Below are positions 9,202-12,853 of a stretch of 64,000 nt of DNA, one piece after another (positions within the stretch are counted from its first letter, which is position 1; the number at the start of each line of letters is the position of its first letter). Both the position numbers and the translations under genes were made by a program. The stretch is from Pseudomonadota bacterium (lineage in GTDB: Archaea; Thermoplasmatota; SW-10-69-26; JACQPN01; JAJPHT01), in the NCBI GenBank assembly GCA_021325135.1, contig JAJPHT010000013.1:99815-163814 (forward strand). Reading direction: 5' to 3'. The notes under the pieces are model-generated. The model searched no databases. It had not been told where the DNA came from and saw nothing but the letters and a program-made list of their open reading frames with translations.

Positions 9202-9615
9202 ATGCCCCGCGCCCAGAACAAGGCGGCGTCCATCCGCCGGTCCATCCAGGTGGGCGCGGGCCCTGCGAAGGTGTATGACGCCTTCCGCACGGGCGAGGCC
9301 CTCTCCACGTGGTACATGGACGGCACCACGTCGGAGTTCCGCGAGGGCGGCGCCATGTCCTTCGACGGCCCCGAGGGGAGCGTGCGCGCGACCTTCGTCG
9401 AGCTTCGCGAGGACGAGCGCATCGTCATGGAGTACCACGCCCCCTGGTGGGGCACCGTGACGTGGGAGATCGTCGCGACCCCCAAGGGCAGCCGCGTGAC
9501 CCTCACCCACGAAGGCTTCGAAGGCCGCGAGGAGTGGCTCGACCGCTTCACCTGGGGTTGGGAATCCTTTCTGAAGGCCCTGAAAGCGTTTGTCGAAGGC
9601 CGGCCGATCAAGTAG
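9202..9615 (+). CDS. SRPBCC/AHSA1-like ligand-binding protein
   Basis: KVYDAF...LSTW, EFREGG, TVTWEI, SRVTLTHEGF, GWESFLKALK. Confidence 0.9.
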   Translation: MPRAQNKAASIRRSIQVGAGPAKVYDAFRTGEALSTWYMDGTTSEFREGGAMSFDGPEGSVRATFVELREDERIVMEYHAPWWGTVTWEIVATPKGSRVTLTHEGFEGREEWLDRFTWGWESFLKALKAFVEGRPIK

Positions 9616-9786
9616 GCAACGTGCGATGCCTGTCGCCCCCGGAGCCGCGCGAAGCGCGGCGGAGCGGGGCGCGCAGGGCGCATTGCGCCGCTGGTGCGCC
9701 AGCGGTGGCCTGGACCGCTTCACCTGGGGTTGGGAATCCTTTCTGAAGGCCCTGAAGGCGTTTGTCGAGGGCCGGCCGATCAAGTA
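9541..9786 (+). repeat. 74-bp direct repeat (72/74 identical) of the SRPBCC 3' end, bracketing a structured element
   Basis: 9541-9614 vs 9713-9786; mismatches at 9585/9757 and 9597/9769. Confidence 0.95.
9633..9705 (+). mobile_element. Short palindrome-rich repeated element, copy 1 (MITE/REP-like; mobility inferred)
   Basis: TCGCCCCCGGAGC..hairpin..GGAGCGGGGCGCGCAGGGCGCATTGCGCCGCTGGTGCGCCAGCGG; inverted homolog at 12347-12419. Confidence 0.65.
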
Positions 9787-9837
9787 AGAGTCGCAAGGGC
9801 CGCGAACGCTTATCTTGCGCCCACGGGCTGGGCGAGC

Positions 9838-10380
9838 GTGCCCCGCGCGCTCCGTGCCGTGCTCCTGCTGGGCTCCCTTCTCGCGCTGGGCGTCGCCGCG
9901 ATCCTCTGGGGCCCGTTCCTGGTGCGGGACCAGATCGAGGGCGCGGGAGGGCCATTCGGCCAGTGGGTCCGCGCCGCGGGCCTCCTCGCCATCGCGTTGG
10001 CCGCGGTCAGCCTGGGGCGGCGCACGCTCCTGCCGCGGCTGGCGCGGGCCCTCCCGGAGCGGCGCGAGACGCTGCGCCGTCTCGGGCGGACCCTGCAACG
10101 CGACGGTGATATCATCCACCTGACGGCGGGCTTCCTGACGCTGGGCCTCGGGCTCCTCCACGCCTGGTACTCGCCCAGCCTCAATCCGCTCATCTGGGCA
10201 GGCTTCGGCTGCCTCGCCCTCCTCGTCGCCATGGGCGTCGGGCTGCAATGGGGGTTCCTGCCGGTCCTTCTGCGGCGCCCCGTCGCGGCGCGGAACGCCA
10301 AGTGGGCGCTCACCCTCGCGGCCACCGTCCTCATCGTCTGGGGGCACGCGCAGCTGCCGCTCCCGCCGGGCGCTCGCTAG
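9838..10380 (+). CDS. Integral membrane protein, possibly heme-b binding (ferric-reductase-like TM domain)
   Basis: About five TM helices; intramembrane His in IHLTAG...LLHAW and WGH. Confidence 0.6.
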   Translation: MPRALRAVLLLGSLLALGVAAILWGPFLVRDQIEGAGGPFGQWVRAAGLLAIALAAVSLGRRTLLPRLARALPERRETLRRLGRTLQRDGDIIHLTAGFLTLGLGLLHAWYSPSLNPLIWAGFGCLALLVAMGVGLQWGFLPVLLRRPVAARNAKWALTLAATVLIVWGHAQLPLPPGAR

Positions 10381-11198
10381 GGCCTGGCCGTCCACACGCG
10401 CTGCCCGCCGTCGCGGTCTTCCTCCACGCTGCGGAACGCGCCGCGCAGCGCCCGCGTCACGGCCGCCGAGGGCGGCGCCTGCGCCACGTCGGGGAAGAGG
10501 CGCTCCTGCTCCTGCGCGAGGAAGTCCACGAAGGGGTCCACGCCGCGCGGCAGCGGCGCGGGCGCCACGGCGTGCAGCGTGCCCGCGGGTGATAGCACGC
10601 GCGCCCACTCGCGGGCGCAGCGGGCGAGGCTGCGCGCGGGGGGAAGCTCGTTGACGAAGAGGAGGCGCACGTGCGCGTCGCGCAGCGGGACCGCGCTCCA
10701 GGTGCCCTCCAGCGCGACGAGCCCCGCGGGAGGACGCGGCGGCGTCGGCACGCCGGGCGGCAGCACGAGGTAGGTCTGCCGCGGCAGGGCGCGGGCGTAG
10801 GCGCCCAGGATGCGAAGCTCCACCGCGCCGACGCGCGAGCCCGACACCATGGCGACGGGGCCCGCGGGAGGGCGCCACGCGCCGCCGCCCGAGCCGCCGC
10901 GGCGCTGCGAGGCGTGGTACGCGCCCATGAGCCGGTCCAGCGCCTCGCGAAGCTCCTCGCGCAACGCCTCCTCGCCGCGCGCCGCGAGGCGATAGACGCG
11001 CCGCGGCGGGCCCTGCCCCCGGGCCTCGGACGAGGCGAGGAGGCCCGCCTCCTCCAGGCGCGCGAGGCGGCGGTACACCGTCGCGCGGTCCGCGCCCTCG
11101 CCCTCCGCCGCAAGCTGCGCCGCGATCGCGTAGGCGTGGGAGGGCCGAGCCCGCACGAGGCGGAGGATGCGCAGGTCCCGCTGGCTCGTCGCATCCAT
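10377..11198 (-). CDS. PadR-family regulator with C-terminal methyltransferase-like domain
   Basis: PSHAYAI, ATVYRRLARLEEAGLL, GPPRRVYRL..RG; C-terminal VPLRDAHV...REWARVLSPAGTL. Confidence 0.8.
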   Translation of the reverse strand: MDATSQRDLRILRLVRARPSHAYAIAAQLAAEGEGADRATVYRRLARLEEAGLLASSEARGQGPPRRVYRLAARGEEALREELREALDRLMGAYHASQRRGGSGGGAWRPPAGPVAMVSGSRVGAVELRILGAYARALPRQTYLVLPPGVPTPPRPPAGLVALEGTWSAVPLRDAHVRLLFVNELPPARSLARCAREWARVLSPAGTLHAVAPAPLPRGVDPFVDFLAQEQERLFPDVAQAPPSAAVTRALRGAFRSVEEDRDGGQRVWTARP

Positions 11199-11253
11199 GC
11201 GAATAGGTGGAGTCGCATAGATGCCTATAAGCCCCATCGCCGCTGGCCGGCGC

Positions 11254-11706
11254 ATGCGATGGCGCCACGAGGCCCTCGTCCCCGCCAGCCCCGACGCGGT
11301 CTACGCCTGGATGTCCGACTTCCGCGAGGACGACCACGCCCGCGAGGCGTTCCTGCGCGGCTCGGGCGCGAAGCCCGGCGGCGCGGCGTCGCATCGCACC
11401 GTCGTCTCCCGGGAGGGGAACCGCGTGCGGCTCCACGACGCGTGGGGCCGCCGCTCCTTCGACCTGGACGTGGAGCTTGCCCCCGAGGCGCGCGAGGTGC
11501 GCCTCACCGGCGAGTACGGCTACTCCGCCACCTGGCGCGCCGAGCCGGCCGCGGGAGACACCCGCGTCGTCGTCGAGGGCCGCCTGGAGCCCACGGGGAT
11601 CATGCGCCTCCTCGCGCCCCTCTTCTCCCGCGGCATGGCCAAGCAGATGCAGGACGACTTCAACGGCCACGTCGAGGACATGCGCAGCGGCCTCACGAAG
11701 ACGTGA
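11254..11706 (+). CDS. SRPBCC (polyketide cyclase-like) protein
   Basis: VPASPDAVYAWMSDF, TRVVVEG, C-terminal helix; TATAAG about 25 nt upstream suggests a leaderless mRNA. Confidence 0.75.
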   Translation: MRWRHEALVPASPDAVYAWMSDFREDDHAREAFLRGSGAKPGGAASHRTVVSREGNRVRLHDAWGRRSFDLDVELAPEAREVRLTGEYGYSATWRAEPAAGDTRVVVEGRLEPTGIMRLLAPLFSRGMAKQMQDDFNGHVEDMRSGLTKT

Positions 11707-12187
11707 GGAGCGCGCGCACCTTCGCCTCGATGCGCTCGGGGTGGTCGTCCCCAAGCTGGACGTGGCGAAGCTCCCCATCGCGGCCCACGAGGTACAGGGC
11801 GGGCCAGAAGCGGTTCTTGAACGCGTCCCACGCCGCGCTGCGCCCGTCCAGCGCCACGGGGAACGCCACGCCCAGCGCGCGCACGGACGCGCCCACCACG
11901 GCCGCGACGTCCGCGCCGAACGCCGGCTCGTGGACGCCCACCACGGCGAGCCCCAGGGGCCCATACGCGCGATGCATGGCCTCGGCCTCCAGCATCGCGG
12001 ACGCGCAGCGCACGTCGTCGTGCACGAAGAAGACGATGAGCGTCACGCGCCCGCGCAGCGACGCGGGATCGACCGCGCCGCCCACCCAGCCGGTGGCGGA
12101 GCGCAGGGAGAGGAGCGGCCCGTAGAGCGGCGCCGGAGCCGGGGGCTCCAGCCAATCCGCCACCCTCGCGCGCCAGCCCGCGTCCAT
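11693..12187 (-). CDS. Thioredoxin-like redoxin (DipZ-type) lacking the first active-site Cys
   Basis: LRGRVTLIVF, DVRC in place of CxxC, GLAVVGVHEPAF, FPVALD, NRFWPALYLVGRDG. Confidence 0.75.
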   Translation of the reverse strand: MDAGWRARVADWLEPPAPAPLYGPLLSLRSATGWVGGAVDPASLRGRVTLIVFFVHDDVRCASAMLEAEAMHRAYGPLGLAVVGVHEPAFGADVAAVVGASVRALGVAFPVALDGRSAAWDAFKNRFWPALYLVGRDGELRHVQLGDDHPERIEAKVRALLTSS

Positions 12188-12278
12188 GCAGGGCCACCTC
12201 GGCGCCGACCCCTACAAGACGGTTTCCCGATGCGCCCGGGCCAGCAAAGGCTCATCAGGAGGGCGCTCCGGGGCGCTC

Positions 12279-12529
12279 GCCGCCATGATGCTTGGCTTCG
12301 GAATGAGCACCCCCAAACTTCGCGATGACCGAATTTGATTCGACTGCCGCTGGCGCACCAGCGGCGCAATGCGCCCTACGCACCCCGCTCCGCGCCGCAG
12401 GCGGCGCTCCGGGGGCGATAAGCCGGCCGAGGTCATCCAAACGCTCAAGCCAAGCGAGCCGTCCTGGGGCGTGCCGCCATGATGCTTGGCTTCGGAATGA
12501 GCACCCCCAAATTTCGCGATGACCGAATT
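12279..12529 (+). repeat. 57-bp direct repeat (56/57 identical) bracketing element copy 2
   Basis: 12279-12335 vs 12473-12529; one mismatch at 12318/12512. Confidence 0.95.
12347..12419 (-). mobile_element. Short palindrome-rich repeated element, copy 2
   Basis: Reverse complement matches 9633-9705; the first hairpin is kept through compensatory changes. Confidence 0.65.
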
Positions 12530-12546
12530 GGACTTTGCTGAGCGGC
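12473..12546 (+). ncRNA. Putative box C/D-like (K-turn) small RNA
   Basis: GCCGC/GCGGC terminal stem; C-like AUGAUGC, D'-like AUGA, C'-like GCGAUGA, D box CUGA. Confidence 0.4.
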
Positions 12547-12643
12547 TTTCGATCACTGGGGCGGGCCCAAGGGGGAGGGCTTCGTCGCGCGCGCGGCGCG
12601 TGCGCTGGGGGAGTCTGGGCTTGGGGCCACGAAGGGGGCCGTC

Positions 12644-12853
12644 CTACCTGGCCCGGTCGCGGTCGCGCTTGACCTGCCACGCCGTGAGGACCATGCCCAG
12701 GGGGCAGAGGACGGCGGCGACGAAGGGGATCCACGCGTAGCGGCCGTAGCCCCAGAGGGAGAGCGCCAGGACGAGGGCGAAGGGGGCGAGGGCGACGGTC
12801 CAGTGGAGCGCGTCGCGCAGGGCGGTCCGCTGCCGGGGCGTCTCCGGGGCCAC
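12644..12853 (-). CDS. Small two-TM membrane protein
   Basis: Two hydrophobic helices and a basic tail. Confidence 0.6.
   Translation of the reverse strand: MAPETPRQRTALRDALHWTVALAPFALVLALSLWGYGRYAWIPFVAAVLCPLGMVLTAWQVKRDRDRAR

Follow-up and report, generated by a model that had tools for sequence, protein, structure and literature searches.

The window, a 64,000-nucleotide stretch (contig C12:99815-163814) of a soil Thermoplasmata metagenome-assembled genome (MAG) of 3.77 Mb and 71.6% GC, contains two copies of a structured repeat, here designated E, each of which lies between a functional gene terminus (X) and an orphan second copy of that terminus (X'). The first copy follows an SRPBCC/AHSA1-like gene on the plus strand, and the second, on the minus strand, stands beside the start of a plus-strand gene whose product begins MTELDFAER. 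A genome-wide search for further copies of E accompanied by a local duplication returned nine duplication loci in the window's own genome (G000), and eight more were found in two congeners and on two metagenome contigs; the 17 loci share the order pre - X - S - E - tail - X' - post, with an X of 18-124 nt. The units are without an open reading frame (ORF), measure 64-190 nt as a whole and amount to DNA of about 100 bases. Every genome compared is a MAG, and among the congeners G002 and G004 carry E and G003 is free of it. The anatomy of these loci points tentatively to very small integrative units that would enter chromosomes through homology to a gene end.

Anatomy of the E units

At both window loci (9541-9787, plus strand, and 12279-12529, minus strand; Table 1) X is the functional copy, contiguous in locus 1 with the SRPBCC/AHSA1-like gene and in locus 2 with the body of the MTELDFAER gene, the start of which is conserved in congeners. 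A sequence-only reading had placed the two E cores, the 72/74 and 56/57 repeats, and the distance from the terminal hairpin CCGCTGG-TGCG-CCAGCGG to the start of X' (7 nt in locus 1, 11 nt in locus 2), and all of these were re-found; the loose likeness that it saw between the two X sequences proved unsupported, since they are unrelated gene ends. Local alignment of X with X' scores 68 in locus 1 and 54 in locus 2, with a shuffle maximum of 15, and because the scores lie far above that maximum and the layout recurs at other loci, it is not a product of chance.

Table 1. Parts of the two E units, in window coordinates.
Feature	Position	Strand	Description
X, locus 1	9541-9614	+	Last 24 codons of the SRPBCC/AHSA1-like gene; ORF ends at 9615, TAG 9613-9615
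S, locus 1	9616-9632	+	17 nt, 5'-variable part; matches the inside of the long-form element (CGTGCGATGCCT)
E core, locus 1	9633-9705	+	73 nt; outer stem and three hairpins; terminal hairpin 9688-9705
Tail, locus 1	9706-9712	+	TGGCCTG; TGGC equals the target bases just upstream of X; CTG in place of native TC
X', locus 1	9713-9787	+	Orphan second gene end; same 24 residues; stop TAA instead of TAG
Direct repeats, locus 1	9538-9614 / 9710-9786		77 nt, 96%; core of 74 nt, 72/74
X, locus 2	12473-12529	-	5' untranslated region and first codons of the plus-strand MTELDFAER gene; ATG 12519-12521 on the plus strand
S, locus 2	12420-12472	-	Diverged homologue of the native promoter-side flank; CTTGAGCGTTT common to a congener's orthologous site
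E core, locus 2	12347-12419	-	Apical hairpin GCGCCGC-CTG-GCGGCGC; terminal hairpin 12347-12364
Tail, locus 2	12336-12346	-	CAGTCGAATCA on the minus strand
X', locus 2	12279-12335	-	Orphan copy, 56/57; then native flank toward the thioredoxin-like gene 11693-12187
Direct repeats, locus 2	12279-12335 / 12473-12529		56/57

The predicted fold of E is a nested stem-loop followed by the terminal hairpin. In locus 1 the apical hairpin GCCGCGC-GAA-GCGCGGC is placed between two GGA motifs and is accompanied by a mini-hairpin, GGCGC-ATT-GCGCC, and the core has a minimum free energy of -61.9 kcal/mol (z = -2.1); the segments 9654-9705 and 12347-12398, which belong to the two oppositely oriented copies, are 92% complementary. 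The apical arms are swapped between the copies in a compensatory manner, as the sequence-only reading had claimed for the first hairpin, and covariation extends to the terminal stem, with C-G in 8 and G-C in 13 rows of the E alignment, and to the outer stem, with A-U in 16 and G-C in 5 rows. Because several pairs have changed on both sides, the structure of E is conserved at the DNA or RNA level. Its 3' end is constant, and its 5' end is variable, being truncated relative to a long form described below.

The duplicated targets fall into three groups. X is the 3' end of a protein gene together with its stop codon at L1, C33, C40 (the tail of a PAC2 gene), C42 (thiolase), C30, L016, L021 (biotin carrier), and L046. 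At five loci it is the 3' part of a tRNA gene, beginning in the T loop or the anticodon loop (tRNA-Ser, tRNA-Thr, tRNA-Leu, tRNA-Gln, and an unidentified tRNA on C6), and ARAGORN places the intact tRNA on the X side. At locus 2, L012, L023, and C12:16063 it comprises the 5' end of an opposite-strand gene or sequence upstream of one. Thus tRNA targets account for 5 of the 17 loci and protein-gene or intergenic sites for 12. In most loci E has the orientation of the upstream gene and follows its stop codon, ahead of the native T-rich terminator. Measured from the stop codon or the tRNA end, the 5' junctions range from -4 to +6 nt, the stop being recreated at once, and X and X' are fully identical (100%) at eight loci.

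Where the two copies differ, they differ almost silently. Over 157 codons, X and X' show 26 synonymous changes, five stop-for-stop swaps, and one conservative D/E change; 31 of 36 changed bases are at third positions and are of all kinds, with no specificity for adenine (the silent changes in X' of locus 1 are AAA/AAG and GAA/GAG). Homology does not end with X but runs on through S up to the 5' end of E, falling to about 60%, so that the duplication is longer than the sequence-only reading had claimed and is not detached from the 5' end of E, as it had held; on the other side, three to four target bases follow the terminal hairpin. S is therefore a homologue of the native flank that is ~40% diverged with its function preserved. 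At L016 it encodes the same YSTESPL-stop with six of seven codons changed, including a TCG/AGC pair, and the two versions match two allele types that occur in different congeners. At L012 it provides the opposite-strand gene with a strong new Shine-Dalgarno sequence, GGAGGTGATCTG-ATG, and at locus 2 it is closer to the G002 version of the site than the native-position copy is. No in-genome paralogue that might have been the source of a diverged copy was found by blastn-short in G000. Since the element-proximal part is diverged yet function-preserving, the duplicates, judged by these comparisons, are not simple fresh target-site duplications, and they have the pattern of a replacement gene end that the element carries with it, as integrative elements do.

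The 3' junction has a regular composition of its own. Directly 3' of the last hairpin stand three to four bases identical to the target bases located 1-3 nt upstream of X. Summed over 16 loci, this match amounts to 46, compared with 30.2 +/- 2.8 in permuted pairings, none of 5000 of which reached 46 (P < 2e-4). The next 2-3 nt are substituted, often by G-rich sequence, with GG, CTG, CGG, CT, or TCT replacing AA, AGA, TC, GC, and others; read by eye, the substitution yields YGGA or CTGA in 13 of the 17 loci. The functional copy keeps the native bases, as in the T loop, which retains AA. The substitution may belong to a recognition site composed of CCAG, a 5-7-nt spacer, and a CTGG-like sequence. 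Joining by microhomology at the extreme 3' terminus of the tail was considered and rejected, as the matching bases are internal.

Distribution of E and occupancy of its sites

A regular expression for the terminal module detected 12 copies of E in G000, and a profile search added those on C22 and C30, for a total of 13-14; G002 has 11 copies and G004 has two. Among 41 related genomes, no E was found outside this genus, with matches only in G000, G002, and G004; a pattern scan of 185,579 GTDB species genomes matched G002 alone, and a metagenome scan supplied two informative contigs with E. The region at 9400-12700 of the window has no Rfam match at an E-value <= 1. Outside G000, the duplication accompanies 6 of the 11 G002 matches (10 loci examined), one G004 copy, and the E copies of the two metagenome contigs. 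The subtypes of E group by genome, with a TTCA-loop type in G002, and there are several identical cores; together these features indicate recent spread.

Four copies represent a long form of ~107-137 nt with an extra 5' hairpin. No longer, autonomous master element was found around them: beyond ~107-137 nt their homology ceases, and they are not linked to any gene. G000 and G002 share one long-form copy by orthology, in both cases after the same lysine-rich gene; this copy is therefore old and inherited, and the family is transmitted vertically as well. Two long-form copies in G000 (C12:91884-91919 and C20:19734-19769) possess a second, tandem terminal hairpin (CCGCTGG-TCCG-CCAGCGG). In both, a convergent gene ends with its stop codon directly against the repeat.

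Sites with duplications differ between species. The filled G002 sites L012, L023, L016, and L021 are cleanly empty in G000, i.e., single-copy and contiguous, and the AHSA1-like orthologues of four congeners have the same stop position and no E, so that the site of locus 1 is empty in all four. G000 and G002 have no duplicated site in common, and since no such site is shared between two species, the units are gained and lost. Units can also accumulate. At a tRNA-Gln gene on the metagenome contig Ga0247719_1004712 (L048, 1-260), two units form the tandem X-E-X-E-X, with E copies that differ by one base; the corresponding site of G004 holds a single unit. At L021 (G002:C111, ~1390-1710), in the biotin-carrier gene, the duplicated segment extends into an E copy and takes in its initial 24 nt, which implies that the unit entered a site already holding E or a remnant of it.

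The surroundings of the window units were compared as well. The membrane-protein ORF at 9787-10380 (plus strand), which follows X' of locus 1, is missing from that position in every congener, so the gene content beside this unit is variable; in G002 the AHSA1-like gene is directly followed by a convergent PadR-like gene. The MTELDFAER ORF (12519-12740, plus strand) has a start and upstream region that are conserved in four congeners, always near an AHSA1-like gene, and in G000 its frame past the first ~10 codons appears arginine/glycine-rich and may be decayed. An independent 2.6-kb Logan contig (SRR5581483) covering window positions ~9800-12300 ends at both units, pointing to interruption of short-read assembly by the repeats.

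Candidate enzymes

The sequence-only reading had named HUH/RAYT, TnpB, IS110, and reverse transcriptase genes as possible partners of E, and none of these tracks it. Reverse transcriptase (PF00078) and Y1/RAYT transposase (PF01797) are absent from G000, TnpB (PF07282) is found in none of five genomes of the genus, and among the same five IS110 (PF01548) occurs only in the E-free G003. GIY-YIG and resolvase domains are present in all five genomes, E-free ones included, and a search for serine recombinases gave no candidate that tracks E.

Tyrosine recombinases are represented in G000 by a XerA-like gene and by two paralogous integrase modules, C19:31481-32608 and C26:13885-15051 (L037 and L038). 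The modules share 57% identity, with integrases of 380-389 aa preceded by a protein of 247-280 aa, the N-terminus of which is ribbon-helix-helix-like by eye; they are probably two related integrated elements. Their integrase family also occurs in G003 and is absent from G002 and G004, which carry other integrases. Setting aside the widespread GIY-YIG and resolvase domains, the comparison of G000 with G002 leaves the XerA-like gene as the one candidate recombinase common to both. On these occurrences, the only candidates that would be shared by all E-bearing genomes are chromosomal XerA and host homologous recombination.

Origin of the units and relation to known elements

The reading put forward here, tentatively and with not quite even confidence, is that E forms the conserved core of ORF-less miniature integrative units, each composed of E and an arm of target homology in which the recombination that inserts them takes place. 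We infer this mechanism from the anatomy of the loci. The arm of each unit would be homologous to one chromosomal target, a gene end, and entry would be of the Campbell type, with a small intermediate, circular or derived from a tandem, as its probable source. Because the crossover would occur within the arm, the intact gene would be completed by the unit's own gene end (X and S), and the resident end (X' and its native flank) would be displaced to the far side of E. X would then be the zone of strand exchange, held identical by repeated crossover, with S and the substituted junction bases staying linked to E. The terminal module, which consists of two TGCGCC/GCTGG-type repeats, N3-4, and YGGA, could serve as the site for a recombinase or nuclease acting in trans, and units might spread between strains on transferred chromosomal DNA. 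The proposal in the sequence-only reading of a non-autonomous element that duplicates its flank is broadly right: the units are without ORFs, their sites are polymorphic between species and cleanly empty in a congener, and the duplication belongs to the insertion; silent recoding and the L012 Shine-Dalgarno sequence nevertheless argue against plain fresh duplication.

Such an arrangement has precedents in larger elements. Integrative elements such as e14 and phage 21, in icd, replace the 3' end of a gene, and the T loop and anticodon loop of tRNA genes are classic sublocations of integrase att sites. Cis-mobilizable elements (CIMEs) are integrase-less elements flanked by att sites (PMC5704250). 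The E units resemble CIMEs, tRNA islands, and icd elements in several respects: the gene receives its end from the element and stays intact, with the native end shifted to the other side; the identity block begins in the T or anticodon loop; the element-borne end differs silently; units accrete in tandem; and no recombinase gene is present inside. The direct repeats of the target gene end at 17 loci are attL/attR-like, and sites are empty in relatives, as with CIMEs and integrative elements. In contrast to integrative elements, an E unit has only 64-190 nt and no cargo; one core serves at least 17 targets, including gene 5' ends, rather than one att specificity; no cognate integrase was found; and a G-rich substitution lies 4-7 nt after the hairpin at a fixed junction.

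Several observations weigh against entry through a homologous arm. A family with at least 17 different arms would need a route for gaining new ones. The E cores are near-identical within a genome and the S arms strongly diverged, a combination that needs concerted evolution of E or fast turnover. At C40, L046, L1, and C30, X is 100% identical and divergence is abrupt, setting in within 1-4 nt of the stop, which also fits a junction made by insertion. The substitution beside X', such as that of the T-loop AA to GG, is no natural allele, and integration of a circle does not predict it. Finally, the occurrence of E is not matched by that of any recombinase, and G002 and G004 lack the non-Xer integrases found in G000.

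In a second explanation, the main alternative, E is an element comparable to a miniature inverted-repeat transposable element (MITE) or a short interspersed element (SINE), copied by target priming from its fixed 3' end. A nick within the gene would prime the copying, which would stop at variable 5' positions. A second, staggered break would produce the duplication of 18-150 nt, and the silent differences would stem from later recombination. A constant 3' end with variable 5' truncation relative to the ~107-137-nt form, duplications of variable length, an identical X at eight loci, a 3' junction with extra or substituted bases, and near-identical cores within a genome are all consistent with this process, as is the L021 duplication, which ends 24 nt inside an older E as copying followed by switching would give. 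SINEs and long interspersed elements (LINEs) share with E the fixed 3' end, the 5' truncation, target duplications that are variable and sometimes long, and extra junction bases; they differ in that G000 has no reverse transcriptase and in that the duplicated copies of E are silently recoded. G000 has no Y1 transposase either, and the genus has no TnpB. A fresh duplication would leave unexplained the ~40% diverged, function-preserving S beside an identical X, and the 5' junctions are too precise for untargeted insertion followed by selection. Target-primed copying is thus regarded as rather unlikely. Repetitive extragenic palindromic (REP) sequences, the bacterial interspersed mosaic elements built around them, and MITEs are likewise GC-rich, hairpin-forming, ORF-less intergenic repeats, and E resembles them in its ~75-140 nt, its dozen copies, its position just after stops, and its compensatory changes; however, RAYT-moved REPs make no duplication and MITEs make short fixed ones, whereas E has long duplications and no RAYT or insertion-sequence partner. 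Backward replication slippage was also rejected, since it predicts two E copies and native junction bases, neither of which is seen.

Selection rather than mobility might maintain the layout if E were a functional RNA of the 3' untranslated region or trailer, with the repeated gene end kept for 3' processing or termination. The tRNA-linked repeats (TLRs) of Escherichia coli, reportedly an observation of Egan and Landy in 1978, offer a model. They are short noncoding units behind tRNA and rRNA genes, the last 18-19 bp of which repeat the 3' end of the upstream gene, and some give rise to small RNAs (PMC8144298). At the five tRNA loci the E units are built in the same way, standing singly or in tandem behind tRNA genes and ending in a copy of the 3' end of the upstream gene; yet TLRs are known only behind stable-RNA genes and repeat 18-19 bp, whereas E units repeat 18-124 nt, mostly of protein-gene ends and also of gene starts, their sites are polymorphic between species, and their host is an archaeon. 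Co-orientation with the upstream gene in most loci, the position between stop codon and T-rich terminator, the compensatory changes that keep the structure, and the copy orthologous in two species would all suit an RNA module. The same layout at opposite-strand 5' ends (locus 2, L012, L023, and C12:16063) has no 3' processing logic, every duplicated site is occupied in one but not the other of the two congeners compared, and the silent-only divergence of the orphan copy is left unexplained, so that this function is improbable as the cause of the duplications. At the tRNA loci a bulge-helix-bulge intron was considered, the tRNA-Ser junction being at the canonical position 37/38, and was dropped on inspection because the junctions are direct repeats and not complementary.

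The sequence-only reading had also offered a scaffold-plus-guide or template RNA cassette, comparable to an omega-RNA, bridge-RNA, or diversity-generating-retroelement/retron-like RNA, with X' aimed at the neighboring gene. A structured element followed at a fixed distance by target-matching sequence invites this comparison, and X' and X are immediately preceded by different bases, in the manner of a self/non-self mark of the protospacer- or transposon-adjacent-motif type. The guides of TnpB omega RNA and IS110 bridge RNA measure ~14-20 nt, and an X' of 18-124 nt is unlike known guides; the intact upstream X would itself be a target; the differences between X and X' are not adenine-specific; and the relevant enzymes are missing, with TnpB in none of five genomes, IS110 only in the E-free one, and neither reverse transcriptase nor Y1 transposase in G000. 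A guide or template role is accordingly judged very improbable, and a diversity-generating retroelement was rejected for the missing reverse transcriptase and the absence of adenine specificity. That co-assembled strain variants were joined in series is barely credible. The MAG origin of the sequences, the allele-like differences between X and X', and the break of the Logan contig at both units speak for it; against it, one junction geometry with a consistent micro-anatomy is seen 17 times, across three independent MAGs and two independent contigs from metagenomes, and no k-mer shared between the E tail and X' could join them.

To return to integration through a homologous arm, its broadest form would treat the E units as programmable archaeal mobile elements of a new class, with the enzyme supplied in trans. 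Some recombinase or nuclease, perhaps the host's, would recognize a hairpin module of ~30 nt, and the adjoining arm of 30-150 nt, a silently recoded gene end, would direct insertion by homology, a generalization that is speculative and unlikely. If the arm directs insertion, the same core could be retargeted to any gene terminus with the gene left unharmed. The units would then be the smallest known integrative elements and a natural form of retargetable, gene-sparing insertion in archaea, with a bearing on allele exchange between archaeal genomes and possibly on insertion tools. Even on a conservative reading, they account for the recurrence of spare, silently differing gene and tRNA ends next to hairpin repeats, and they extend the TLR layout, described in E. 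coli in 1978, to protein genes and to archaea.

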